This document shows, piece by piece, positions 15,386-55,164 of a DNA stretch of 64,000 nt. Position 1 is the stretch's first letter. Each line of letters begins with the position of its first letter. The translations under genes and the position numbers were made by a program. The stretch comes from Heptranchias perlo (taxonomy: Eukaryota). Below the pieces are notes generated by a model, which did no database searches, was not told the origin of the DNA, and saw only the letters and a program-made list of their open reading frames with translations. The stretch lies in assembly GCF_035084215.1 (NCBI RefSeq), contig NC_090327.1:91760001-91824000 (forward strand), written 5' to 3'.

Positions 15386-15936
15386 ACTCATTATCTCTTT
15401 CAGTATGTCTGGTACTGTGTATCACTCTCGTACACTTAATTTTTCTGTCTCATTTCTGCTATTTTTACCTTTTGTTGTCGCTTAGCCGCTTTCTTTCTTT
15501 CTAATTTTATCTTTTATTTTGTATGTTTTTATCTTTTGTGAGGTAGATCATACAGTTGGGAGGTGTCACATGCATGGTGGCCCCATTTGAACAGCGCCAA
15601 GCATCCGCAGAGAGCAGGAAAAGATTGAACAACTGCAAGTTTCTGCACGCATGAATGAAATAGGTGGAAAAACATAGCGACCATACATAGCTACTGAGGG
15701 CCAAACAAGAAACAGTGAGGGACAATGGCCCTGATATTAGAATGGAGACAGGATGGCAGCGGGGTGGTGAATGAGCGCGTGGGTAACCCAACCAATAAAT
15801 TCAATTAGTGCCACTTAACGTGGCTTCCGGGTTTGCCGTCGGAAAGCTGCGCAGCAGGCGGACTGCGGACCCGCATCACAGGCTGTCAGCTGGAGGAGCT
15901 CTATTTAAAGAGCCATTGCGCCAAAGGCAAACCACA

Positions 15937-17799
15937 ATGGAGCAGCATGGAGCAAGGCTGCTCCAAGGTTCAGTGAATCCTCCTCCTCCTCACACCGTCC
16001 TGGAGTGAGGCAAGTGTTTTACCCCGCGGACGGGAGGAAGTACCCTGCCTCTGCCACCAAGAAGGCCTGGCTCGAGGTGGCAGAGGAGGTCACCAGCAGC
16101 AGCAACTTCTCCCATACCTGGATCCAGTGCAAGAAGCATTTCAATGACCTAACTAGGTCAGCAAAAGTGAATACACTTACTGAGTCTCCTGCATTCCGTG
16201 TTGTACATCACCGCCTCCCCCCTGCCCCAACTCATTCTGCACTGCCAAGACTACTCCATCACATCACTCCTCACACCCACTTAAGGCTCATCCTCAACTT
16301 ACCTGCACTTCCTCACCTCCCCATTAGTCACCCCACCACTACCACTCACCCCAATCCTCATCCAATGTGATGTCTCTATCTGATACTCATCCTCTGATGC
16401 ACCTCTTTCACAGTCAGCCTCACCCAGAGCAATGCATTCATCGGCTGAGCACTTCACCATCACTCACACGTGTGTTCTTTGTCCCCTTCTAGAAGAGCGC
16501 GCAAAATGCAGGAGAGAGGGCGAGGACTGCAGGTGGGCCACAACAAGTAGTGGTCCTCACAGACGCAGAGCAGGAGGCGCTGGAGCTCAGCCATGCCCCC
16601 GAGTGCCTGTCCGTTGGGGACGGCGAGACTGGCAACCCTCAAACATCTGGTGACACAACTTTAACATTCATCACACACAATGTGAATTGATGTTAACATT
16701 GCCTGCCATCTTCAACACCTCAGTATGCTCATCGCAACATGACACATCTGTGATGATGCTTAATACTGCCTTCAGTTCTCTTACAGGGACTTCAACGACC
16801 GCAGTGACGGCAGAGGGCGATTCCTCAGGGGACCTGCCGGCCTCTGAGGGTGCACCGTCACATCTTAGCAAGCCATCCACCAGCACAGATACTCACACCT
16901 CGGTGGGTCCTAGTAGTCAGTTAGTTGAGTTGGCACCTGGTGAGTCACCACACACAAGTGAGCACGAGCAGACATTGGTGGCAGGGGCAGTTGTGGAGAG
17001 TCCACGTCGGTGGGCGCACTCCTCTCCAGGCTCTGCTCAGCTGGACTCAGAAGCTGAACCCCGGGGGCCGTCCTTTAAGAGGAGAATGATCGAGGGACAG
17101 CAGCACATTTGCGAGGTACTAGAACAGGTGCCATGCATACTTTCCACAATAGCACAGAGGATGGAGGAGTCCAACTCCTGCATGAGTGGACTGGTGGCAC
17201 AGGTACGGGAGGGAATCTCTGAGATAGTGTCACTGGGACGTGAGCAACTGTCTAAGATAGTCTCACAGGTAAGTGCAGGAATATCTGCGATAGAGAGATG
17301 GCTAGCCTCCGTTGAGCTTCAAATACGGCTCACCAATGAGTCCATTCGGACTCAGAGTGAACAACATTCTGCTGCCTTAGACAGGCAGACAGATACACTA
17401 GCACTGGCCTTAAAGGCATCACAAATGTCCCATCTCCAAACTGTTGTCCAGCAGAGTTGTAAGAGTGATGTGGCCCTACCCCAGGGGAGGGACGATGGTG
17501 AAAGGGGACGTGGAAGTGTGGACGCCACTCAAAGCGCTCCCACATCTCACCCATTGCCCCCCTCTCTACCAGTACCCGCAATGCTGCCTCCTCTCCAGGT
17601 GGCCGAGTCTGTCCCTGCACAGGTGCAGGTGGAGCAGTCTTTGGAGGGGCCCTCACAGGCTCCAAAACCCAGAGGGCGTAGGCCCAAAGCATCTGAGCAG
17701 CCAGGGCATGAACATGAGCAACCTGCCACTACCTCTGCTGCAGCCATAGGGGATGCACCACGTAGAAGTAGTCGGAAGAGAAAGGCTAAAGTTTTGTGA
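15937..17799 (+). pseudogene. Harbinger Myb/SANT-like DNA-binding protein, 3 exons (about 15937-16166, 16493-16649, 16787-17799)
   Basis: KKAWLEVAEEV..WIQCKKHFNDL trihelix motif; GT/AG junctions; TATA-like ctatttaaag at 15901; exons 1-2 appear disrupted, exon 3 open. Confidence 0.8.
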
Positions 17800-18114
17800 A
17801 CACAAAGGGTATGCACAACAGTGTTTGACAGATGGTCATTTTTTCCATTTATATTTGCTTTTTGTTAGTCGCATTAGATGTTATGACTGTCACCACTACT
17901 GCCACATCTTACCCATTCTTGACTGACTTTTGTGTTAGGGCCCTTTCATGAGGTCCAACATGAACGGCGACAGTTGATGCCACCAATTGGGTCACTTTAC
18001 AGTGGGTGTATGTTTAGTTGCAGGACTGTTTTATGCAGGGAGGGGTGGGCGGCCTGGTCTGGGCGCTGCTCTTTCCAGGTGGTCGGAGGACTGGACTCTT
18101 CACACTTTCTGATG

Positions 18115-19280
18115 TTAGGAGAACCGTTCACATATTATTGACTCCCTGGCCTCACGAGCAGCCAGGTGAGCCGCTGCTCTGCCCATGGGTTCCTCCTCCT
18201 CAATGTGGTTGGCAGATGTGGATGTAGCCTCCTCAAACAGCACTCCTCTCTGTTGTGCCATGTTGTGCAGGGCACAACACATTACTATAATGCGTCCCAC
18301 TCTGTCTGGTATGTATTGAAGTGCTCCCCCAGAACAATCAAGGCACCTAAATCGCATCTTGAGCAGTCCTATAGCATGCTCAATTGTAGACCTGGTGGCG
18401 ATGTGGCTGTTGTTTTATTGAGGCTGTGGCTTGGTGATGGGGTTCCTCAGAGGTGTCATGAGCCACGTATGCAGGAGATATCTGTTGTCCCCGAGGAGCC
18501 AGCCCTAAAGGGTGTTCGGTGCTTGAAAGAGGGGCAGGATGTTGGATTGCCTCAGAATGAAGGAACTGTGGCAGCTGCCAGGGAGTCTGGCGCACACGTG
18601 AAGGAATCTTTTGTGGTTGTCACAAACGAGCTGAATGTTGATGAAGTGATACCCCTTTCTGTTGATGAACAGTTTAGGCTCGTGTGGAGGTGCTCGTATT
18701 GCAATATGGGTGCAATTGATTACACCTGCAGACATGGGAAGCCTGCCACAGAGTGGAATCCCACTGCCTCTCCATCTGGCTGAGGTCGTCCATGGGAGAG
18801 TTGACGTACTGCGAGGCTCTGCAAAACAAGCCATTGGTGACCTGCCTTATGCACTTGTGTGCAGACAACTGAGAGACCCCGGTGACGTCCCCGGTAGCAC
18901 CCTGGAATGATCCGAAGGCGAAGAAGTTGAGGGCAGTGGTGACTTTGACAGTGACGGGTAATGAGATGCCGCTCCCCCCAGTCAGGAGCAACTCGGCATG
19001 AAGGAGACTGCAGATGTCTGCGACTACCTGGCGACTTGCTCTTAGCCTCTGTATGCACTGCTCCTCAGAGAGGTCCAGGAAGTTGAGCCTCGGTCTGTAG
19101 ACCCTGTAGCGAGGGTAGTGCCTCCTGTGACGTCGCTCCCTCTATTGTTCCTCTCTGTGCTCTTATGCAGGTGCCTGTGGCGCAGAACTGTGTTGTGGAG
19201 CTGCAAATGGCGGAAGTGCACACCTTGCCTGGCGAGGCTGGTGATGTTGTAGTAGTGAATGCAGCCATGGTATCCCCCAT
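18115..19280 (-). pseudogene. Harbinger DDE transposase (HARBI1-like), frameshifted
   Basis: LPVTVKVTTALNFFAFGSFQ, GVINCTHIAI (catalytic D appears as N), NRKGYHFINIQLVCD, PGSCHSSFIL, RFRCLD, CCALHN. Confidence 0.9.
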
Positions 19281-24770: not shown

Positions 24771-24879
24771 ACTGTGCATGTTGGACACTGTGAACAACTT
24801 TTGCTGTTACTGCAAATACCCTGCAGTAACAGCAAAAGTTGTTCAGTGTCCAATCTTTGGTTCTTCAATCTGCAGAGAT

Positions 24880-31982: not shown

Positions 31983-32018
31983 TTTGTATGTCCAAATTTC
32001 CAACCTCCACTTTTAAGC

Positions 32019-32036
32019 AACCATCCTCTGCTACCA
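32019..32036 (-). promoter_or_regulatory. Primer-binding site for tRNA-iMet
   Basis: Minus TGGTAGCAGAGGATGGTT, complementary to the 3' end of initiator Met tRNA, abutting the 5' LTR. Confidence 0.9.
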
Positions 32037-32170
32037 TGTTAAAACTGGATAGCCATGTGCTGAAGGATCGAATACTAGAGCCTGGTTTTTAGTTTCTTCC
32101 AAGTCTTTATTCACAGAGTTTTCTCTTGCACACACACCACGCCATATCTAAGTTCTCCTGTAAAAAGGAT
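32037..32170 (-). repeat. Copia 5' LTR, truncated
   Basis: Aligns with 26492-about 26623; the last ~45 bp are missing. Confidence 0.85.
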
Positions 32171-32182
32171 CATTGTAGAGTT

Positions 32183-32458
32183 TTTTTTCAGAAAACCAAT
32201 AAACCCAATTTAAAAAAATTTTTTTTTTGCACAAACCAAAAAACCCAAAACAACTGTCAAATCAAAATTTTATTATTCTGGTCCAGGATGCACTCCAGCC
32301 CCTGCGGTGCCCACCGGTCGTGGAAAGCCTCAAGCGTATCGGAAGATACCGCGTACTCCATCTCCAGGGTCACCCGGGCGCGGAGAATTCCGCGGAAGAG
32401 AGGCAGACAGTGCGAGCGACCGCCCCCATGGGCTATGTCTAACCTGGACCTGTGGATA
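32183..32458 (-). mobile_element. Tx1/L1-clade LINE 3' end, recent 5'-truncated insertion
   Basis: Open frame IHRSRLDIAHGGGRSHCLPLFRGILRARVTLEMEYAVSSDTLEAFHDRWAPQGLECILDQNNKILI*; T-rich UTR, poly(A); 11-bp TSD attgtagagtt (32172-32182, 32459-32469). Confidence 0.75.
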
Positions 32459-33237
32459 ATTGTAGAGTTGATTCAGTGCTCCTGTGCACCAGAAAAGCAA
32501 GTGTATCACTGGTGCCAAGATGGGAGAGAAGACTCTGTGCCAATATCTTTTGGGCTCACAATTAAGCGTTCTTCTATTCTGGTGAGCTGAAGTACTTCTA
32601 CTCACTTCAAGTGCGAGCCTCCTTATCGTCTAAGATTACATGCACAAATATTTAAATGAAAGCCCAGCCCAACTCAGTGGTATTTCTGCTGGGTATGCTA
32701 TTTTTATCTTGTAAGCAATGGTAGCACAGGTGCTCCATGGGTGAAGAAGCTCTGAAATAGTCTTTGTATGGATGTTTTTCATATTGCTTATGGTACTTCT
32801 TTAGGACTTCTTCCCATATTTTTGAATTTTAAAAAAATTGGAGGCTTATTTTAAGTTCTTAAGGTTAAAGTTTACTTTTAAAGTATCCCAAATAAAGTAT
32901 TTAATGGTCGACATCGTACAAAATGAAAAAAGGCATGCCAGAAAGGTCAGAAGGCCCCAGACCATATATGCAGACACTTACCAACAGTGCGCAACTATAG
33001 CTTTTAAGCCTTGCGTTGAATCAGTTCTTTTTTGGCATGTTTACCAATGGATTTTGAATTTTAAAAACCTTGTGGTCACAGACAAGGGAGGCCATTTAGC
33101 CCATCTAATTCATCCTTCCACCAAAAACTGCAGATCCATAACAGTATCTAATTGCTGCTTGAATGATCACTAATTTTTGGCCTTCATTACCCTATGTGAA
33201 AGCAAACAAAGCCTATTTCAGAGAAGAAGGAAGAGGA

Positions 33238-34115
33238 TAGGCCCAACCATCTTCAGCTGCTTCATCAATGACCTTCCCTCCATCATAAGGTCAAAAATGG
33301 GGATGTTCGCTGATGATTGCGCAGTGTTCAGTTCCATTCGAAACCCCTCAGATAATGAAGCAGTCCATGCCCGCATGCAGCAAGACCTGGACAACATCCA
33401 GGCTTGGGCTCATAAGTGGCAAGTAACATTCGCGCCAGACAAGTGCCAGGCAATGACCATCTCCAACAAGACAGAGTCTAACCACCTTCCCTTGATATTC
33501 AACAGCATTACCATCGTCAAATCCCCCACCATCAACATCCTGGGGGTCACCACTGACCAGAAACTTAACTGGACCAGCCACATAAATATTGTGGCTACAA
33601 GAGCAGGTCAGAGGCTGGGTATTCTGTGGTGAGTGACTCACCTCGTGACTCCACAAAGCCTTTCCACCATCTACAAGGCACAAGTCAGGAGTGTGATGGA
33701 ATACTCTCCATTTGCCTGGATGAGTGCAGCTCCAACAACACTCAAGAAGCTCGACACCATCCAAGACAAAGCAGCCCGCTTGATTGGCACCCCATCCACC
33801 ACCATAAACATTCACAGGAACACTGCAGCAACTCGCAACCCGAGACCTGTACCACCTAGAAGGACAAGGGCAGCAGACACCTGCACGTTCCCCTCCGAGT
33901 CACACACCATCCTGACTTGGAAATATATCGCCGTTCCTTAAGTGTTGCTGGGTCAAAATCCTGGAACTCCCGACCTAACAGCACTGTGGGAGAACCTTCA
34001 CCACACGGACTGCAGCGGTTCAAGAAGGCGGCTCACCACCACCTTCTCAAGGGCAATTAGGGATGGGCAATAAATGCTGGCCTTGCCAGCGACGCCCACA
34101 TCCCATGAGTGAGTA
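33238..34115 (+). mobile_element. CR1-group LINE, second family, 3' part
   Basis: GPTIFSCFINDLP, MFADDC, QVRSVMEYS; tail gggatgggcaataaatgctggcc. Confidence 0.88.
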
Positions 34116-34518
34116 AAAAGAGATTGTGGGCAAAAGGAGAAGGGGGTCTATTGTCACCCACACTTGGGGCGAGCAAGTGGGAGTGGGGCAGTGAGGATAG
34201 AGGGTTGAGGACGAGGTGAGTAACAGTGGATCAAGGGGAAGGGGATGGAGAGGATAGAGGGGTTGAGTGGGTAGTTGAAAGCGGAAGCAATAGAGTTACT
34301 GGTAGGAGAGAGAGGATTGTGGGAAGAGAAAGGTGTAGGAGACTCGATTGGAGTGAGGTGATGGGGGAAGCATGAGATATTGGTGGAGGGGATGGGAAGG
34401 TAACCACCGAGGGCCATACTTTTACCACAACCCCCACCACAAATGCAGCCTGCAGCTCTTGGTGGTTCGTTGCTCTGCCACACTACGCCATACCACCTGA
34501 AAGGAAAGAAGCAAAGGA

Positions 34519-34524
<6 letters not shown>

Positions 34525-34553
<29 letters not shown>
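34525..34553. repeat. (AG)n microsatellite
   Basis: Directly visible. Confidence 0.95.
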
Positions 34554-34557
<4 letters not shown>

Positions 34558-36474
34558 CAGATATCATAATGTGTACTGAATTCAAACTTCCTGAATTTCA
34601 CAACTTTATATCTTAAAGCACACATCTAATAATTTAGTATCCAACAATCAGATTTTTGGAATTAATATTAGCATTGAGTTTCTCTCACTCTGCAATAATA
34701 GTTAGTCTGAATTTTTGTTATAGCTAACGTTTAACCCTGCCAGATACCATTTGGTATTTTTAGTTATTTTTCAATGGGCTTCCTACAACCAACATGACTC
34801 AGGAGTAGTTCTGATATTGAAGTCAGTGTTCCTCCTACTCACCTAGAGCGTTGGAGGTTGATATTGACAGAAGTATTGGGTTTAAAAGAAAACAGGGAGA
34901 AAAAAAATCTCAACTCCTGCAACAAAAGAGCTTTAAAATGGCAGCAATTTCAATATGGATCATCCAATTTATTTTAATAGATTTCTCAAAAAGATGCCAC
35001 TTTAATTACATAAAAGTTCCCTCCAAGGCATAAAGAATCATTGCATCAAAAAAGTGCCACAGTGTGGAGATTTTCTGAACAGAAATATTATACAAATAAA
35101 AAGATAGTATTACCAGACAATTCAGATATGTTTCTTTGCTCCATTAGAACGTGAAACTATAAGGGTATTCATTTGATAGGTATAGGATCAAATAAAAAAA
35201 GACTAAAGAAGTGAGATATATGTATGTATATATATATTCAAGGTAGCATGCTCAACGAGATAATTCAATTTCCATAAAGGCTGGAACATTGAGCAGCCAA
35301 ATCCCTCCAGAATTTAATGTCAGTTCCATCATCAAGCACTTATTGTTCATCTCCCTGAAGAGTTTCAGTTGGAACCAACAGAAATTAAGCACCAGATCAG
35401 TGTGCAATAGTATATACAAATGCAGAGAATACAAATTTTACCTCTATGATGTTCAGAAGCTGCTTTTCGGAGAGCTAGGAAATGGATTCTGTTTCCCATG
35501 CGAGATCAAGTATTATTATGCTATTATGCATTCTTATTTCCTGTGAGCTTATGGTGTCATTAATGGTGTGTACACAAGGTTGCCAACTAAGAGTAAATGA
35601 ATGCCGTTAGTATTAGGAATGGTGGGTTATTTATCCTTATGACTTCTGTTCAAAAAAAAGTGTATCATACATAAATGCCATGAAAACGCTCATGGCTATT
35701 ATCTTGAAAATTGTATTTGAATGTCAGATGTGGACAGGTTGCAGTGTAAGAGTATGAAATCCCTGTATTTTCCTAGCACAAATGGTGGAATGAGCAGACA
35801 GATGACCTGTTTGTAGGCCACCTCCAATGTAACTCTTGTCAATAATGAGACACGCAAGAACGCCTGTTGATTTTTCCTTCTCCCATTCCCGTGGGGAAGC
35901 ATGTGACCCCTATGTATCCTTTGTCTCTGTGTCTTTCATCGAGGCATATTAATAAAGAAACCACACAGTGGCTGCAGGCTGTGGAGTCATAATCTTTTAC
36001 TTAGTCCTTCCCTGTTTTTCAGTACTCCTGATTTGGAATTGGTTTGAGTTTGTTTACTTATGTCTGATTATGTACTAAAAAACAGCTTGTAGATTATTGA
36101 TGCATCAGATAGACTGGAGGTGAAATTCAACTTCAGCAGGGTGCACAATGAGTGGTAGTGGATCGGCCGCCCATTAGACACCCCACCCAATTTTCCATTC
36201 CATTGAAGTGAGGATAGTTAAACTAATTTAACACTCTTATCAGTCAAAGTTTAAGTCTACAAGAGTTGTACTGAATTGCCAGGTTGCCATCAATCACTAG
36301 CATCCATATAACTCAATTTTCATTTTAATTGCCAAAAACATTTGTACAATTTGCCATTGGTTTATCCTTTTAATGATTAGCATTTGTTAAAATTAGGCTG
36401 TTGGATAATTCTTCCGTGGTACTACTCATAGCACTACTTTTACACAATTTAATAATGCAGGGAAATAACTGCTA

Positions 36475-36680
36475 GAATAGAATTACATAGAATTTACAGC
36501 ACTGAAACAGGCCATTCGGCCCAACTGGTCAATGCTCCACACGAGCCTCCTCCCACCCCTCTTCATCAAACTCTATCAGCATAATCATCTAATCCTTTCT
36601 CCCTAAAGCGTTTATCTAGCTTCCCCTTAAATGCATCTATATTATTCGCCTCAACTACTCCTTGTGCTAGCGAGTTCATA
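36475..36680 (-). mobile_element. CR1 3' tail fragment
   Basis: Same tail as 1207-1463. Confidence 0.8.
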
Positions 36681-36899
36681 TATTTTTTTTTTCGTACAAA
36701 TCTACAAATAAAAGTGTTCTGAGACATTAAGGGGCTGACCAATTGATAACAATCCGCAGTTTGTTTGGAATCAGGGACAACACAGCATGCACTTGATGTC
36801 TATAATTGTTGGGCTCTTGGGCTCAGTTGTTTGTGTCTTTACAATCTGGCAACAGTTATAGAGTTCTTCGATAATTAAGACATCAGCTGGCTTATTTCC

Positions 36900-37922
36900 T
36901 ATTGTTAGTGGGGTGCCGCAAGGATCAGTGCTGGGGCCTTAGCTATTTACAATCTATATTAATGACTTAGATGAAGGGACCGAGTGCAACGTATCCAAGT
37001 TTGCTGACGGTACAAAGCTATGTGGGAAAGTAAGCTGTGAGGAGGACACAAAGAGTCTGCAAAGGGATATAGACAGGTTAAGTGAGTGGGCAAGAAGGTG
37101 GCAGATGGAGTATAATGTGGGGAGATGTGAGGTTATTCACTTTGGTAGGAAGAATAGAAAAATAGAATATTTTTTAAATGGTGAAAAACTTTTAAATGTT
37201 GGTGTTCAGAGGGATTTGGGTGTTCTTATACACAAAACATAAAAAGTGAACATGCAGGTACAGCAAGCAATTAGGAAGGCAACTGGTATGTTGGTCTTTA
37301 TTGCAAGGGAGTTGGAGTACATGAGTAAGGAGATCGTGCTGCAATTGTACAGGGCTTTGGTAAGACCACACCTGAAGTACTGTATAAGTTTTGGTTTCCT
37401 TACCTAAGGAAGGATATACTTGACTTAGAGGCGGTGCAACGAAGGTTTACTAGATTAATTCCTGCGATGAGAGGGTTGTCCTATGAGGAGAGATTGAGTA
37501 GAAGGGGCCTATATTCTCTGGAGTTTAGAAGAATGAGAGGTGATCTCGTTGAAACATAAAAGATTCTGAGAAGGATTGACAGGGTAGGTGCTGAGAGGCT
37601 GTTTCCAGTGGCTGGAGAGTCTAGAACTAGGGAACATAGTCTCAGGATAAGATGTCAGCCATTTTGGACTGAGATGAGGAGGAATTTCTTCACTCAGAGG
37701 ATTGTGAATATTTGGAATTCTCTACCCCAGAGGGCTGTGGATGCTCAGTCATTGAGTATATTCAAGGCTGAGATTGATACATTTTTGGACTTTAAGGGAA
37801 TCAAGGGATATGGGGATCCGGCGGGAAAGTGGAGCTGAGTTCGAAGATCAGCCATGATCTTATTGAATGGCGGAGCAGGCTCGAGGGGCCATATGGCCTA
37901 CTCCTGCTCCTATTTCTTATGC
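36900..37922 (+). mobile_element. CR1 LINE 3' fragment
   Basis: [16 protein letters not shown], then 3'UTR; stops and frameshifts. Confidence 0.92.
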
Positions 37923-39000
37923 TCTTCTGCACAGTAGCAGATGATATATCCTGGTGGACAATTCAGGCCAGCACTGCTTTTATCACTTTAATAGCCATAT
38001 AAACCCTGTTAAAAAACAAACACACCCACCTCTCTGGGGGATGAGCCATAGAAATGCCTGATTCATGGAGCAGGCCCTGCAACAGCTTCTCTAACTTCCC
38101 CTGCACCATTACCTCTGGAGCCCACCAAGGATCTATCCTTGGCCCACTTCTATTTTTAATCTACATGCTGCTCCTTGGCGACATCATCCGAACACATGAT
38201 GCAGGTTCCACATGTATGCTGTCGACACCCAACTCTACCTCACCACCATCCCTCTCTACCCCTCCATTGCCTCTGTGTTATCAGGTTGCTTGTCTGCATC
38301 CGGTCCTGGATGAGTCGAAATTTCCTCCAATTAAATATTGGGAACAAGGGCCATTGTCTTCAGCCCTCACCACAAACTCTGTTCCATAACCACTGATTCC
38401 ATTCCCCTCCATGTCCACAGTCTCAGGCTGAAACAAATGGTGCTTCTGCATCCTAGCTTCCATCCTCCCATCTTCCACACTCCATAAACTTGAGCTCAAT
38501 AAATTTGGTGCTCATATCCTAACTCGCACCAAGTCCTGTTCACCCATCACCCTTGTGCTCGCTGACCTGCATTGGCTCCTGGTGGACCACCTTGATTTTA
38601 ATATTTTTATCCTCATGTTCAAATCCCTCCATGGTCTTGCTCCTCCTTATCTCTGTAACCTATTCCAGCCCTACAACCCTCCGAGAACTCTGTGTTCCTC
38701 CAATTCTGATCTCTTATGCATCCCCCCCCCTCTACCTTCACCCCACTATTGGCGGCCGAGCCTTCTGCCGGCTAGACCCTAAGCTCTGAAATTCCCTCCG
38801 TAAACAACTCTGCCTCATTATCCTCCTTTAAGATGCTCCCAGCTCTTTGACCAAGCTTTTCGTCACCTGTCCTAATACCACTTTCTTTTGCTTGCTGTCC
38901 ATTTTTATCTATGATGTGGAGATGCCACTGATGGACTGGGGTTGACAAATGTAAGGAATCTTACAACACCAGGTTATAGTCCAACTGTTTTATTTGAAAA

Positions 39001-39037
39001 TCACAAGCTTTCGGAGGCTTTCTCCTTCGTCAGGTGA
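39001..39037 (-). ncRNA. Minimal hammerhead ribozyme motif
   Basis: Exact reverse complement of 39047-39083. Confidence 0.7.
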
Positions 39038-39046
39038 GTGTGACAC

Positions 39047-39083
39047 TCACCTGACGAAGGAGAAAGCCTCCGAAAGCTTGTGA
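39047..39083 (+). ncRNA. Minimal hammerhead ribozyme motif
   Basis: tcac ctgacga a ggag aaagc ctcc gaaa gc tt gtga. Confidence 0.7.
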
Positions 39084-39739
39084 TTTTCAAATAAAACAGT
39101 TGGACTATAACCTGGTGTTGTAAGATTCCTTACATTTTTATCTAATTACGCTTCTGTGAAGCACCTTAGGACGTTTTTCTACATTCAAGGCACTATATAA
39201 ATGCAAGTTGTTACTATTGCTGTCATATCTTAAAAATGTTTGCTTGGAAAATTTGTGAGAATCTTTAAATAACAATTTTAGTCAGTAATCTAATTTTTTT
39301 TGGTGATGTACTGATTTTAATAATTATATTTTATCTTATAACCTACCTCTTGGACCTTTTAGTTACCTTTTGGCTCGTTGTCAATTTTTGTCTGATTATG
39401 TTCCTGTAAATTGCCTTGGGATGTTTTACAACAATACAATAGAGAGTGTTAGAAAAAGCAGAAATGCCCTCTATACTTCTGAAGGGCAGCCTACAAATGC
39501 AAGTTTATTGTTGTTGACATTTCAGATCTATTACAAGCTGCAAAGACAGACATGCAAAGTGGGAGCTGATAAAGGTTGTTCAATAATGACTTTGGAAACA
39601 CAAAGAACTGGGGATCTTAAAGTAATTACTCTGGTTACTGCAGCTATTAGTGTATTTGACATTTTATTCTGCTATGCTTTGCAATAAATACACTGTTACG
39701 TAAGCCTGCCCTTTTCTCTGCAAAATGCAATACTCACCA

Positions 39740-41330
39740 TTATTTTCCTTGCAGAAAGAAACAGCCTCCAACAGATGCTGATGGGTAACGACCGGAGGTG
39801 GCATGCAGCAAGCAAAATCTCTTACCCGCTATGAGGAGGCCATAATGAAATCGCAGGCTGAAAGACCATGCAAAGCATGGGAGATGCTTATATTTGTGGA
39901 GACGGCAACTCTCCTGGTATAGACAAGGTAAATGCATACATTCACTGTGCCAATTATTTTGATTTTCATGTGCTTCTGCAGTACTAAATTTTTTAAATAA
40001 TAGACCGCAAGCCCAGGAGCAGAAACCTAGGGGGAGATTTTAATTAGAAATGAATTTAGAGGCGGGTGGGGGAAGGGGCAAAGGTCAAACCCACTCGACA
40101 TAATCAATATGAGGCCCGGCCTATTTTAACTCCCAGGACTTATTTACATCCTTCTGGCTAACTGCCCGCCCGAAACGGGTGGGAAGAGGGGAGAGCCCGG
40201 GGCAGCAGAGACCCAGACTTTCCTTGTGGAGCCTGGAACAGTGCTCCTGCTCCTCCTGGCCCCACTAAAGAAAGTTTAACACTTACTCTACAGAGCCTCT
40301 TCTTCCTGCAGACCAGGTTTCACTCAGCGAGGTTGCTGCCCCACTCAGTCGGTGGTTAAAATGCTTTTGGGGTCCTGATGACATCATGGGACGTATGTGT
40401 GTATGTATTAATGATGCTACCGTCTGAGTCAGGTGGGTGCCTCGGCTGCCTGAAATGGGTTCCGTTAAGGCGGCGGTGGGCTGTAAAGGGGCGGTAAGTT
40501 TTCGGATGCATTTTTAACTGTGTTGGGTGGAGTGGGTTAATTTTGTCCCCCCTGGTCTCTTTGCTCCATATTGGTCTTGAAATTGAGGTGTGTAGATCTG
40601 TGATGCAGCCAATTGCATATTGACTGATCCCACTGATATCTCCTGCTAGTGGTGCAGTGGTCACTTTCACTTCCATTGAATGTTCCAACCAGATGTTGTT
40701 CCTTAGCTTCAGGCGTGGTTCCGGGAGCTGACATGGGTCACAAATCATATCCCTGTTGAGGGGTAGCCTCTGTACACACTGTTCCCTGCCAAGGCACATC
40801 TGCAATAGTTGCACTGCATCGAATAGTAGCTAACCCTTCTCCTCGGCTGTCAAACCTCCTGGGCCATCATTTCCTGTTTTTCATTCTCGTCATTCTCCAA
40901 AGTGTCTGACAGAAGATTTCATGCTTCACTCATACTGCTTGTTGACTGAAAGCCTTTTCTGACTGGTTTTGCACCCTGCTTTGTTTTGACCACCCACACC
41001 TCCCAGCTCTGGTAGCTTGCTCTGATCTTTTTACATCAGCTTCAATTATGCAGATCATGTACATTGAGAGTAAATTTGCATGTTCTCCATTGATTGCCAT
41101 TTAACAAGTACTTAACACTTCAAAGAATTACTAAAACTCAGTTAGTGCATTATTGTGCTGTGCAGTGCAGTTATAGCACTGTGGACAAAAGTTAGGACCT
41201 TCTCCATTAATGCTACCTCAGAAAATGACTACACTACCTTAATGCATAATTAGTATGTACACTGGTTTGAACGCTTAGAGAAAATGCACCATTATAGAGT
41301 GTACCATCAGTGTTAATGCCAGTAAAAGTA
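39740..41330. mobile_element. Decayed Harbinger (Myb exon on +, transposase remnant on -) with a MITE at about 40030-40552
   Basis: AG/GT-bounded 39755-39927 gives TTGGG..LTRYEEA with a stop; minus VKVTTA..GDISGISQ. Confidence 0.6.
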
Positions 41331-41331
41331 T

Positions 41332-42055
41332 GGGGCACAATTTTAACATTGAAAAACGGGTGGGTTGGGGGCAGGGAGGCATTGAAAATCACAACCATTT
41401 CAGACCCACCCCCCAACCCGCTCCAAACCTGCCTCCAATCCGCCCATTTCTGGTTTTCACTGGAACAGGCCGAGGGGTGGGCAACCAACCCGCTCCCAGG
41501 AGGCGAGTTGGTGACTAAAACCTTTCAAGGAGGCTGCGGCCCTCCGTTTTTACAGATTTTGCAATTTTAACTCCTGGGGGTCAGGATTCCCGAGCTTTCT
41601 CCTTCATGCCACATGCGAGGAGGCAAGAAGGCCCGAAACTGCAGGTAAGTGCCTTTCTGGCACAGCTTGTGGGCCCAGAGGAGCAGGAGTGCTTCCCCCA
41701 GGCCCAACAAGCCTACCTGCAGCGACCCCCCCCCCCCCCCACGATCTCCGATCCCCCCACAACGATCGCAGACTCCCCCCGCGACCTCCAACTCCCCCCC
41801 CTAACGATCGCAGACCCCCACGATGGCCCCCTTACCCCCCCAAACAATCGCGGACAGCTGCGAAAACCCCGGACCCCAACAATGACCCCTGATCCCGACA
41901 CCCTCACCTCCGTGACTGACTCCCCACATGCCCACCCATGTCCATCAGTGCCCTGTGCCCATCCATGCTCAAGTGCCCCATGCCAACCATGCCCCAGTGC
42001 CCAGCAATGCCTAACAGTGCCCCGTGCCAAGCAATGCCCAACAGTAAATAAATAA
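41332..42055. mobile_element. Harbinger-type non-autonomous element, left part
   Basis: ggggcacaattttaac end; C-rich acgatc and tgccc low-complexity arrays; no right TIR seen. Confidence 0.55.
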
Positions 42056-43110
42056 GGCAGCTGCCTGACTGCCAAGAAGAAAATCTAGAGTTTATACTTG
42101 ACAATATTCATTGCTATCTGGCACTCATTGACGAAGCTCCTCAGTTTCTGCCCTTGGAATGATGTTCCAATCCTTGAAACAACCTACTTCGCCACAAAAT
42201 TCAAACTCATCGGCGGACAGAGGTGTTGTGCTTACCTTACTTTCGATTCTGGTTAAAGTAATGGCTGTAAAGGAGTTTTGAGTAACACGTTAAGTTATTT
42301 TAGGATTTGAACTGGGACTGCATGAGCATAAGGTTAGAAATTGTTTGAAATACTGAGCAGTTTTTTATGACTTAAGTATTGACTAGGAAATTGTTTGACA
42401 GTAGTACTGACAATGGGCCATCATTGAAATACTGAGTGATGAGGTTGAGGGAAAGAGGGGAAATCAGATTCAAATTGTGAGTGGGGTTGAATTTGATTGA
42501 AAATGAGTGTGAAGGAATGACTTGACAGAAGTACAGAATGAGTTTTCTTGGGGAAGGGCCTGAAAATTGATTTGGGAGGGCGAATATTGACTGATGTGAT
42601 TGGTATGGATGGAGAGATTTATTTGAATAACTGAGTATCAGGGTGAATAACATACTGAGGGTTTAAACAAACCTAAAACACTATGTATGTGGTGGGAGTT
42701 GACTAATTGTGTAAGGTTTTGTCTAAAATGCTGTGTGCTTGTGTATATGGGTGGGTGGTTGGGGTGGGGGGAGGGGGGAGGGCGGCAGGCGGCAGGGGGA
42801 GGTTATAACCACTGACCCCACGTGAATCTTTAGACAATTAAGAATGCAGGACCAATTTGATGAGTAGGATTTGACTAATAAATCAGGAAGGAAATTTAAG
42901 GAAAATCTTGGAATTTTAAATGCATCATTGATTTTCTGATTTAATTATGCCATTTAACAACATTAATGGAGCAGATGGAGTTGAAAAATCATCTGGAGGC
43001 CAGTTCCACCGGATCCCAGCAGGTTCTGGGATTTCTGTCAGGAGTGACAGTGAACCTATTGAAAGTAGACTGTAATGACTGTCACATGTCATATTTTTCA
43101 TAATTACAAC

Positions 43111-44588
43111 AACATAAGAAATCGGAGCAGGAGTAGGTCATATGGCCCCTCGAGCCTGCTTCACCATTCAATAAGATCATGGCTGATCTTCGACCACAAC
43201 TTCACTTTCCCACCAGATCCCCATATTCCTTGATTCTCTTCGATTCCAAAAATCTGTCAATCTCAGTCTTGAATAGACTCAACGACTTGAGTATCCACAG
43301 CCCTCTGGGGTAGAGATTCACAACTCTTTGAGTAAAGAAATTTTTCCTCATCTCAGCCCTAAATGGTCGACCCCTTATCTTCAGACTATGATCCCTAGTT
43401 CTAGACTCTCCAGCCAGGGGATACAGCCTCTCAGCATCTACCCTGTCAAGCCTTCTAAGAATTTTATGTTTCAATGAGATCATCTCTCATTCCTCTAAAC
43501 TCCAGAGAATATAGGCCCATTCTACTCAATCTCTCCTCATAGGACAACCCCTCTTATCCCAGGAATCAATCTAGTGAACCTTAATTGCACCACCTCTAAG
43601 GCAAGTATATCCTTCCTTAAGTAAGGAAACCAAAACTGTACACAGTACTCCAGGTGTGGTGTCTCCAAGGCCTCTCAATTGCAGCAAGACCTCCTTACTC
43701 TTGTAGTCCAACCCCTTTGCAATAAAGGCTAACAAAGGTCCCAAGGACTATGGGGAAAGAGCAGGGGAATGGGACTAATTGGATAGCTCTTCCAAAGAGC
43801 CGGCACAGGCAAGATGGGCCGAATGGCCTCCTCCTGTGCTGTACCTACGATGATACTATTTGCCTTCTTAATCGTTTGCTGTACCTGCATGTTAACTTTC
43901 TGTGATTCGTGTACAAGGACACCCAAATCCCTCTGAACACCAACATTTAAAAGTTTTTCACCATTTAAAAAATATTCTGCTTTTCTATTCTTCCTACCAA
44001 AGTGGATAATTTTACATTTCCCCACAATATACTCCATCTGCCACCTTCTTGCCCACTCACTAACCTGTCTCTCTCCCTTTGCAGCCACTGTGCATCCTCT
44101 TCACAGCTTACTTTCCCACCTAGCTTTGTACCTCAACAAACTTGGATACATTACACTCGGTCCCCTCATCTAAGTTATTAATATAGATTGTAAACAGCTG
44201 AGGCCCAAGCGCTGATCCTTGCGGCATCCCACGAGTTATAACCTGTCAACCTGAAAATGAACCGTTTATTCCTACTCTCTGTTTTCTGTCTGTTAACCAA
44301 ATCTCTATCCTTGCTAATATATTACCCCCAATTCCATGAGCCCTAATCTTGTGTAACAACCTCTTGTGTGGCACCTTATCGAATGCCTTTTGAAAATCCA
44401 AATATACTACATCCACTGGTTCCCCTTTGTCTACCCTGCTAGGTACACCCTCAAAACACTCTAATAGATTTGTTGAACACGATTGCCCTTTCATAAAACC
44501 GTATTGACTCTGTTTAATCTTATTATGATTTTCTATGCGCCCTAATAATGGATTCTAGCATTTTCCCTACTACCGATGTCAGGCTATT
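43111..44588 (-). mobile_element. CR1 fragment with an opposite-strand CR1 tail nested at about 43734-43852
   Basis: YLDFQKAFDKVPH, WQMEY; nested + strand 3'UTR. Confidence 0.9.
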
Positions 44589-47500
44589 ACTGCTATTTTA
44601 ACACACCAATAATGTGTGCATATTACTGGTGTTCGGTGTTGCTAAGGACCTGTTGCAAAAATGATTGTAGAGAATTGATTCACTTCTTTTGACAGCGATT
44701 TTTAAATTTCAGGCACAAAAGACCACTATCCTTACACTGCCCCACGGATAGCTGGTACCCTGTTGCACTACTGTAGGTGTCTAAGGTCTGGAGCAGCTAT
44801 TTTCCATCCTTGCCTCACTGAGTCAGGCTCCCGGGCACAGTCATAAATACCACTGGGAGCCCACTTGAATGCAAATTAGGCTGACCCCAGTGAATTCACT
44901 GCAATCTGTTATGCAACAGTTGGTGGGAAAAGTTGTGCCCTGCAATACATACAGTGGCGCTGTTGCCATAGAGGCAAATCTCAGCCATTTTGACCAAATA
45001 AACTTACCAATTCTGTTATTTTAAATTTTTACCTGGACAACATTTTAGGCTAGTAAATATTCTTTTCTATTTCAAACCAGGCCTTGTATAACCCCTACAG
45101 TAATCACATTTGATCTACAGCATTTCTGTATATGCAGCATTAGATCAGATTTAATTTTCATGGAAAAGATGCATCATTTATGCTCAGTGTTATTTCATGA
45201 TATTGTCTATAATCTACAGGTATTGCATCCTGCAGATCTAATATAGGATAAGGAACATTTGATCAATCTGACATTATCATCATGGAAATAAAATTCAGTA
45301 GGTGAATCAAGACTCCCATATTCTTCCATTTAATAAATTTCAACTCGGATCTTTATCCTCCAAATTACATTCACCTTTCATCCTCTTTGGCGATATAAAA
45401 TATAGTGTCATAGCAAGTAACAAGAGTTAAGAAACAAGTATATTATTTTGTTACTAGATTATCATAATGTACGTGATTCACCTCTATAGCTTTCAGTCCA
45501 GTTTAATGGGGATTGATGAGATTTTAGGGTCTTGCCTTAGATATTATCTCGGGTGCAATGGTGTTGGTCACTTCCTTAAGTGGTCTGAGCATCATACGTT
45601 TTGGAGTGTGCCTGAACTGTCCAAAATCTAACTATGATAGCATAACCCAGCTTTTCAACAGCAGTCCTATCCCCTTGTGATCTAAACTGGGCATTCATGT
45701 CTTTCACACATGAGCTTCTTGAATTTCTCTGAAGGCCAACTGAGCAAACACTTGTGAGACAAGGCCAGAGACAAATTATTAGGCTGCTTAACTTCAAAGC
45801 ACAAACTACAGTTATGATTGAAAATAAGTAAATCCAATCATTACAACTTTGCTTCATGGAAGAGAACAAAATAATGAATATGCTGTGCTTCCCCCCTATC
45901 AGTGAGTCATCTTGCTTGACTTTTTTTTAAACAAAGGAGTGTAATAGCTATCCTCTTCTACCTTCTGACCTCGCAGCCTTTGCTGGCCGTACTGCCTCAG
46001 AGTTTTTTGTTTCAAAAACCTGATCAACTGCCTGTATCTCCATATCTGTGCTTTATCTTCCTCTACTCACAGCCTGAAAGGGATAAGAGACTATCCAATA
46101 CAACGGGTGTGAGCTGTTTTTCATTGCTGAGACAGGATAATAAATTGCTTATTATTTATGATCTATGGGGAAACCAGATCAAAGCTAGCTCAGAAGCATC
46201 TTAACTACCTATTATTTCAGGGGTATTTTTTAAAAACATGCATGAATATACTATGCTGTAAAACACAATATTTAAAAATAACTCCCTTTCTCCCCCAAAA
46301 CCTCTCTTTGGAAAAATGGCCAAAAAATACTGAAACATGTCAGGAGGTATGTTTTCTAATGAAGTAGCATACACATCAAAAAACATGTACATGTAGATGA
46401 AAAGTCAAATTCAAAATGTCAGGAAGCGTACCAAATTATGTGCCAAAAATCTAAGTTTTCTGGAAGCATGCCCTTTGACCCTTCTTGGAAAAGAAAATCC
46501 CTTGTGTACAGTAAACCCAGTTCTAACATGTCCACTATGACTTTGGTTCCGACCAAATAAATGAACAAATAATCAACTGCAATTTTGTGCAGATATCTAT
46601 GAAACATCTTACATTAATCATTAGTGCATTGTGAACTTGTACTTTACACCAAACATTTTGCTGATTTTGCAGTGATCAGAAAGTTACCACTGGCAGTAAG
46701 ACCACACAGAAGAGTTAATCTTGCATCATTGGTACTGTGCATCAACTGTAGTGTGATTGCAATCAGCGCGAAGCTAACTTATTAAATTCAGCAGGACAGC
46801 CAGCTCTTCTCTGAAAGTAGAAATTTCACCTGAATAAGGGTGATGAAGTAAATCCAATCCATTTAAGCATAAAGGTGTGTTCTCTCTAGCTCAAGAGCCG
46901 CGCAATTAGGGAGTTATAACTAAGGCTGCTCACTTATGCCACTGTCTGAAATGCTCCCAAACACTGCAGCATATTCTGCAGTACATCTACTACATTACAA
47001 ACTATTAAACAATGGGTATGTAAGCGTTCGGCATTCAAAATGGAGGGCACTGTCTTTAAACAAAACATGAACAACATTTTCAAGAAAGAAGGGAATGTAG
47101 TGGCCACCTGCTTTTTACAGATAACCACAACCTCCACCCCCTCCCCCACCACCCTCCCACCCCCCCGACCTCAACCCAGCCCGGAGACATCAAAAGCAGC
47201 GGATTATGTTCCCTTCTTTAAATGCTGTTCACTTGTAATATCTCCTAGTTCTGAGGAAGCATCTTAAGTAGGGTTGCTAACTCTGGTTTGATATATTCTG
47301 AGGAATTTGATCATGAAACAGTATTAACGGCTTTTTCTGGAATCCATTCCACTAATCTGTGGGGAAAACCATTTATCTAATATCAATTGAGGTTTGTTAT
47401 TTAGTATTTATCTTTCTTAATCCCAATTTCTGAGTGAGAACCAATAAATGTGAAGTGTGTTTTTAGTGTAGCACAATAGGAAATCAAGTCACAGTCAGCC

Positions 47501-53215: not shown

Positions 53216-53481
53216 AAATGCAAATTGCATTAAATCCTCGTGTCAACACTGATTTGCAAAGCTGCTTGAACGTAAGTCCACAGGCCTGACTAAAGTCTCG
53301 ACTTGCCTGCGCACGAAGCACCGGGCGTGGGTTAATAGCGGATCAGCTAACCAATCCGCTATTAACCAGCGCCCGGTGCTTCGTGCACAGGCAGGACGAG
53401 ACTTTCGTCAGGCCTGTGGACTTACGTTCAAGCAGCTTTGCGAATCAGTGTTGACACGAGGATTCAATGCAATTCGCATTT
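53216..53481. repeat. Long inverted repeat (128-bp arms, 10-nt loop)
   Basis: 53216-53343 versus 53354-53481, loop cagctaacca, few mismatches. Confidence 0.92.
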
Positions 53482-55038: not shown

Positions 55039-55164
55039 TGATGTGGAGATGCCGGTGATGGACTGGGGTTGACAATTGTAAACAATTTTACAACACCAAG
55101 TTATAGTCCAGCAATTTTATTTTAAATTCACAAGCTTTCGGAGGCTTCCTCCTTCCTCAGGTAA
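55039..55164 (-). mobile_element. Penelope-like short element, monomer, hammerhead motif at 55128-55164
   Basis: 10-bp TSD atttctttta (55029-55038, 55165-55174); minus core CUGAGGA..GAAAGCUU. Confidence 0.8.

Follow-up and report, generated by a model that had tools for sequence, protein, structure and literature searches.

Inverted pLTRs, one-sided tails, target site duplications (TSDs) and palindromic junctions are already known from insertions of EN+ Penelope-like elements (PLEs), as described in the sections of PMC3846280 and PMC8557442 drawn on here. According to the cited part of PMC8557442 it is undefined how PLEs come by their inverted pLTRs and tails, and Arkhipova et al. (PMC3846280, in the excerpt used) favour self-priming on an antisense template for the inverted pLTRs. 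A CX2-5CxxC linker upstream of GIY-YIG defines the Neptune/Nematis-type PLEs in the relevant section of PMC8557442. Opposed minimal hammerheads are likewise known in PLEs: the excerpted text of PMC4209133 reports dual motifs on opposite strands 100-700 bp apart, with no cleavage by single minimal motifs and weak cleavage by dimers. In vitro, the protein of a PLE from an anole makes cuts in both strands and extends them, with RT starting at two internal sites that bound the tail and using uncleaved RNA (PMC11167929, in the portion cited).

We analysed a window of 64,000 nucleotides of the Heptranchias perlo genome (contig NC_090327.1, positions 91,760,001 to 91,824,000), in which a palindrome with two opposed hammerhead motifs had been predicted. 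This palindrome is real but ordinary in kind, one stub among thousands. It is almost certainly a single dead-end PLE insertion, in which, probably, two short cDNAs primed from the ends of a 12-nt staggered cut lie head to head.

The Palindromic Insert and Its Target Site

The features of the locus, in coordinates of the window, are as follows.

38072..39212 (limits approximate), plus strand: older, decayed, LINE-like host repeat, recognised from its translation and with paralogues 84-95% identical; the stub lies in its 3' part
38900..38911: left TSD copy, 12 nt, a direct repeat; a host-repeat paralogue lacks the insert and one copy
38912..38946, minus strand: PLE "tail", 35 nt, on the left alone; its last base in full-length copies is the A of the ORF start codon
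38947..39041, minus strand: left arm, a pLTR stub with the element sense on the minus strand
39001..39037, minus strand: putative minimal type I hammerhead motif, minus copy, read from the sequence
39042: central base of the head-to-head joint, as would fit a left arm extended by one more templated base
39043..39137, plus strand: right arm, a pLTR stub that has no tail and stops at the inner end site; its last 5 nt are common with the TSD
39047..39083, plus strand: putative minimal type I hammerhead motif, plus copy; predicted cut after 39079, isolated-arm pair probabilities 0.85-0.97
39133..39144: right TSD copy, a direct repeat

The two arms (38947-39041 and 39043-39137) are 95 nt each and 100% complementary across a 1-nt gap, as the original prediction had it. 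The flanking duplication that it named also stands: the 12-nt direct repeat CATTTTTATCTA occurs at 38900-38911 and 39133-39144, and when the 350-nt neighbourhood was shuffled 2000 times, a 12-mer direct repeat arose in 10 of the shuffles. We regard the repeat as a true TSD because one paralogue of the host repeat (L193) lacks exactly the insert and one copy, as a single gap of 233 nt (221 of insert plus 12). This was the case in 1 of 14 paralogues; the remaining 13 show split or partial gaps, and the target-like motif stands no more than once at their sites. The right TSD copy and the right arm share 5 nt (a CATTT microhomology). Overlooked in the earlier reading was the one-sided PLE tail, a 35-nt element extension at 38912-38946 on the left arm only, so that the 221-nt insert consists of a tailed arm of 130 nt and a tail-less arm of 95 nt.

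From its RT-like remnants we tentatively label the host repeat L2/CR1; a Pfam search with two remnant frames gave no match. No host gene was identified around the palindrome locus.

An assembly fold-back artefact can be set aside almost entirely. It would not give rise to a TSD, a one-sided tail and a correct inner end site, the paralogous empty site matches to the base, and structures of this kind number in the thousands, many of them having diverged arms. What speaks for it is that no contig was seen across the whole palindrome: one exact contig covers the left junction (38850-38939), but with only 28 letters on the element side against a 31-letter bridging rule, and it may derive from the assembly's own sample.

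The Parent Element

The 27-nt pLTR motif has 66,848 exact matches in the 3.25-Gb genome, and junctions in head-to-head orientation, with 30 nt or less separating the core patterns, number at least 2,959; a subfamily 55-mer is matched exactly 1,927 times and the exact 37-nt centre of the window palindrome 14 times (control 0 in each case). To judge from its 1,927 exact 55-nt matches, the subfamily is young. With at least 2,959 such short palindromes genome-wide, and another in the window itself at 2708-2918, the locus is not the special case that it was first thought to be.

Longer PLE copies continue into an ORF. A 918-codon open frame holds in 12 of the 102 scored protein matches, and nine of these 12 long copies were fetched. 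All nine carry the frame, with 902 aa from the ATG, beside pLTRs; their ORFs are 0-12 aa apart, the tail ends at the A of the ATG in each, and each is a pLTR-ORF-pLTR partial tandem with the hammerhead in the pLTR. The tail followed by ATGG has 4,875 matches genome-wide. The 902-aa protein matches RVT_1 above the cut-off (40.3 bits, E 3.8e-10) and GIY-YIG at 21.3 bits (E 3.4e-4), 1.3 below the Pfam cut-off of 22.6. RT motifs are present (ADKG at 295, YIDD at 532), and the C-terminal nuclease reads VVYLIRCRKGCPRAWYIG with C796, C800, H820 and H836 (CCHH; two Cys between the GIY and YIG boxes). Upstream of GIY-YIG lies the linker C753-x4-C758-xx-C761 (CX4CxxC). A single-sequence AlphaFold model of the nuclease region (pLDDT 33) was uninformative as to fold, and a PDB sequence search with a 410-aa fragment gave no match below E 0.56.

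Arms identical to those of the window over 86 nt immediately follow RT-EN ORF pieces, on their downstream side, in five loci (L164, L165, L172, L173, L186); the pieces have 87-96% aa identity to the full ORF. The Penelope-like nature of the insertion, its inverted 5' end and its minimal hammerheads are borne out as predicted, and the 221-nt insert is almost certainly a PLE stub. Its parent is a C-terminal EN+ PLE, putatively of Neptune/Nematis type, by the definitions in the cited section of PMC8557442. Our first label, "Poseidon-type", was dropped and the Penelope/Poseidon clade set aside, since the CX2-5CxxC linker is present. Among Creative Commons PMC papers and bioRxiv preprints we found no study of this PLE family in sharks, apart perhaps from one listed review.

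Hammerhead Motifs

Each strand carries one motif with a core and helices I and II, as predicted (39047-39083 on the plus strand, 39001-39037 on the minus strand), the two being opposed head to head and 9 nt apart. In the plus-strand copy, helix I is formed by 39047-50/39080-83, CUGACGA lies at 39051-57 with an extra A at 39058, helix II is formed by 39059-62/39068-71, and GAAA at 39072-75 precedes the predicted cut after 39079. Helices I and II have 4 bp each in either motif, and a palindromic AGCU stands in place of helix III. These motifs fit the minimal type I hammerhead that the excerpt of PMC4209133 describes for PLEs. The covariance-model check suggested for them returned none: an Rfam search over 36000-42000 at E<=5 gave 15 matches, all generic hairpins, with 0 hammerheads and 0 at gathering score, from models that may or may not score a motif without helix III.

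Among 269 arms with the hammerhead core, only N7 of CUGANGA/GAAA/UH varies freely (C in 176, G in 81, T in 12) and the other core positions are kept in at least 262, in counts for which the sampling patterns had fixed part of the motif. Helices I and II are also kept: 95.7% of 234 cells are paired across 26 haplotypes, and the changes are mainly to G-U. Two-sided helix changes occur only in an optional fifth pair, which the window copy does not have; the haplotypes are related to each other, and the pattern gives a weak hint of helix covariation.

In predicted folds of an isolated arm, helices I and II have pair probabilities of 0.85-0.97. The 95-bp duplex outcompetes this fold in the full insert, where the predicted probability of helix II is reduced to about 1e-19. 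The long duplex expected of a read-through transcript is upheld by prediction (MFE -178 and -176 kcal/mol), and a stub transcribed from outside would be predicted to form a 95-bp hairpin that abolishes both ribozyme folds. An siRNA or ADAR role of the window hairpin is conceivable by analogy with Penelope inverted repeats, which match siRNAs in transgenic Drosophila (PMC3681739, in excerpt). The genome's thousands of perfect ~95-bp duplex templates might also supply dsRNA pathways, wherever transcripts include them.

Junctions Across Sampled Copies

We compared 191 fetched loci and the window, which gave 330 distinct arms and 117 head-to-head pairs; the loci came from similarity matches, consecutive pattern matches on one contig and long copies, with some bias, and many short pairs were taken with a pattern that sets the centre upstream of the core. 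Exactly one tail is found in 109 of the 117 pairs, and 65 of 105 arms in the position-ordered sample belong to one-tail pairs. The 3' ends of arms are bimodal, falling near position 91-102 and 127-130. TSDs of at least 7 nt flank 101 of 103 pairs (mode 12; 12-14 nt in 76), in a search that allowed one mismatch, ran without a shuffled control and held one duplicate row; they are 67% A+T. Both outer ends carry the microhomology expected of target priming.

The lengths of the two arms bear on the fold-back mechanism of the original prediction, and on the self-priming that the cited part of PMC3846280 proposes for head-to-head palindromic junctions: one cDNA (or antisense RNA) of the same PLE stub would fold back and be copied, and the hairpin intermediate would then be resolved. 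Among the 72 of 106 pairs that could be assigned (34 were left out as unassigned or ambiguous), the tailed arm is longer in 28, the tail-less arm in 26, and the two are equal in 18. If a tailed cDNA folded back, its arm should in no case be the shorter, yet it is shorter in 26 of 72 pairs, sometimes by kilobases (in L097 the tail-less arm has 2,947 nt and the tailed arm 114 nt); two separate primings therefore fit these counts better. Overlaps between arms at the centre are mainly 0-3 nt, which leaves little to nucleate a fold-back, and the target-priming microhomology at the outer ends on both sides also argues against it. Self-priming would, on the other hand, explain why the arms of a pair come from one source: they differ at no more than two sites in 74% of 103 pairs against 18% of random arm pairs. 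Near-equal arms in long pairs (less than 10% unpaired centre in 10 of 30; p 4.5e-4 against a uniform split) fall outside run-off at the transcription start; a hairpin intermediate would account for them, as would one broken RNA copied twice. Overall we consider self-priming unlikely.

L024, L026, L088, L117, L179 and other loci hold long pairs in head-to-head orientation whose arms measure 280-1,040 nt and are almost exactly the same length. At L089 the arms differ at 9 of 81 sites, possibly from two subfamilies in one insertion or from a second insertion.

The 5' ends of arms pile up in the 20-nt window just before the core (44/104 and 20/45), and some of these ends may mark a missing subfamily reference rather than truncation. 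Most long copies of several subfamilies have a TATA box 27-38 nt upstream. Of 74 short pairs, 40 were dropped as unassigned or ambiguous; in the other 34, for which the reference is unambiguous, the longer arm begins at TATA +28 to +30 in 17 and at +27 to +33 in 25. The window locus has its start at TATA +28/29; measured from the TATA box in long copies, base 39042 lies 28-29 nt behind it, at the predicted transcription start. The spacing from a TATA box to the start of transcription is established knowledge, and the start site was inferred from it. A centre with a cap-derived untemplated G is indistinguishable in the sampled pairs from a templated C on the other strand.

Two primings might also yield arms that stop near the hammerhead through stalling of RT on the ribozyme fold or its arrival at the cleavage site, and the pile-up of 5' ends does adjoin helix I. 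The ends nevertheless track the TATA box across subfamilies with differing TATA-to-core distances, and most lie upstream of the ribozyme structure, hence after its copying. Among the loci listed, 52 have their centre at the core or after it, and about 2 of these, judged by eye, have an arm that starts at the predicted cut; the class numbers about 300. We find stalling very improbable, and the rarity of centres at the predicted cleavage site is in keeping with uncleaved templates as in the cited portion of PMC11167929.

The 14 loci with the exact centre of the window have their tail on the left in eight and on the right in five, with one not assigned to a side. Since the tail side varies among loci of the same centre, the palindrome is rebuilt at each insertion instead of moving as a unit. 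A non-autonomous palindromic mini-element or retrozyme moving as a unit, which the shared centre and the very stable predicted hairpin might suggest, is largely refuted by this variable tail side; the same copies also vary in their inner end, centres form a continuum, the stub has no TATA box, and the tandem unit array that a retrozyme requires according to the excerpt of bioRxiv 10.64898/2026.07.22.740005 was not seen at the insert. For a regulatory hairpin or ribozyme at the locus one may point to the siRNA matches in Drosophila, but a ribozyme is hard to reconcile with the vanishing helix II probability of the full insert. We give this group of explanations very little chance.

Age and Expression of the Stub

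The window copy is young in relative terms. Zero differences over 107 paired sites only bound divergence below about 2.8%, and 34 of the 103 sampled pairs have identical arms, so that "very recent" says more than the arms allow. Homogenisation after insertion was considered as a cause of perfect arms and looks minor, given five shared against 47 private, single-arm variants.

Two small-share sequencing runs of other organisms revealed no orthologous empty site, and no joint skipping the insert appeared among the DNA-run matches listed. Over 32000-46000 the best DNA run shows 10 single-site differences and one 2-nt gap against the assembly in unique sequence; this run represents another haplotype or individual than the assembly. 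No RNA run was listed among the sequencing runs that hold the sequence. In three presumed RNA runs of the same sample, contigs fall on repeats including the pLTR, and the unique flanks are uncovered. With neither a TATA box nor an ORF, the stub is predicted to be inert.

Other Features in the Window

Three further pieces of the same PLE repeat lie in the window, one of them palindromic. The last (2708-2918) is a second, older stub with a tailed and a tail-less arm, 95% complementary and with a TSD of about 16 nt. The others are a solo tailed stub with a TSD (55039-55162) and a partial, more diverged piece (2265-2343).

An unrelated palindrome at 53216-53481 has 128-nt arms, 93% complementary, and a 10-nt spacer. 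Its arm is another dispersed repeat with 1,215 candidates, 84-89% identical, and the two other copies viewed are both not palindromic. It contains CTGACGA; a complete hammerhead was not seen there. A short imperfect palindrome (~73 nt, 85%) occurs at 24781-24853. The GC-rich block at 15900-19150 holds a Myb/SANT-like frame (E 0.002, below the cut-off), and presumably resembles a Harbinger-type transposon in its opposite-strand frame, for which a Pfam search gave no match.

A Proposed Model of Two Primings and Run-off

For the window stub we favour, with some reserve, a mechanism of two primings, read from the junctions. RNA would start about 29 nt behind the pLTR TATA box and about 8 nt before the hammerhead core, a start placed by TATA spacing. 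The RT-GIY-YIG protein would cut both target strands 12 nt apart. One 3' end would then prime at the outer site, at the ATG of the ORF, and give the tailed 130-nt arm, while the other would prime at the inner site 35 nt upstream, through the 5-nt CAUUU microhomology, and give the 95-nt arm. Both cDNAs would extend across the ribozyme, still uncleaved, and run off at the 5' end of the RNA, and their two ends would be ligated with 0-3 nt of microhomology.

We lean slightly towards a wider reading, in which the stubs record PLE integration across the whole genome: on uncleaved RNA initiated in the pLTR, two fixed sites would serve both cut strands for priming, and the palindrome centres would map the transcription start to the base. 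If true, this would replace the published model of inverted pLTRs by self-priming or an antisense template, and would account for the one-sided tail. A search confined to Creative Commons PMC papers and bioRxiv preprints found no statement of a two-primer, run-off model.

Of the overall interpretation first proposed, the element type and the duplex are borne out; the special status, the fold-back mechanism and the very recent age are not. The window locus alone, an inert-looking stub among thousands, is of little importance. The class is of modest importance, as its thousands of young junctions let rival models of PLE integration be weighed by counting: a pair has one tail, the longer arm may be either of the two, and centres fall at TATA +29.

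Comparison with Known Systems

As far as the cited sections of PMC3846280 and PMC8557442 go, EN+ PLE insertions such as Pen2a_Av resemble the window stub in their head-to-head inverted, 5'-truncated copy and in a tail at one end only, which is optional and 30-40 nt long there and 35 nt long here. They share the TATA box and Inr-like sequence of the pLTR, and the reach of pLTR and tail into the ORF's beginning. Their TSDs are 8-10 bp against 12 here. In the window the two halves have only 130 and 95 nt with no ORF between them, which sets the stub apart from the insertions in the excerpt of PMC3846280, and the self-priming favoured by its authors contrasts with our junction counts, which favour two primings.

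The hammerheads agree with those that metazoan PLEs carry (Cervera and de la Pena, 2014; PMC4209133, in the part consulted) in a helix I of 4-5 bp, an extra base between positions 9 and 10.1, the G10.1-C11.1 pair, palindromic positions 15.2-16.2 and the lack of helix III. They differ in that the window motifs are only 9 nt apart and have a helix II of 4 bp (5 in other subfamilies).

Poseidon PAc of Anolis carolinensis is alike in that two RT start sites bound the tail, both strands undergo cutting and extension, targets are AT-rich and ribozyme cleavage is not needed, according to the portion of PMC11167929 cited. Its ORF, as given there, begins in stem II and its RT start sites lie more than 100 nt into the ORF, whereas the ATG of the parent element of the stub lies about 120 nt after the core with the outer site at the ATG. 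This parent element also has the CX4CxxC linker that Penelope/Poseidon lacks.

Non-LTR retrozymes, as the excerpt of bioRxiv 10.64898/2026.07.22.740005 describes them, are non-coding like the stub and carry a type I hammerhead related to PLE pLTRs, but they form head-to-tail tandem arrays with same-strand ribozymes, in contrast to a head-to-head stub that is built anew at each insertion. The window stub was rejected as a non-LTR retrozyme: tandem same-strand units are absent, and there is one motif per strand, head to head.

In the twin priming of L1, both target ends prime cDNA on the retroelement RNA, which yields a 5' inversion with a TSD. Twin priming inverts a different, upstream part of the RNA; in the window stub the same region is copied twice, and the product is a palindrome.
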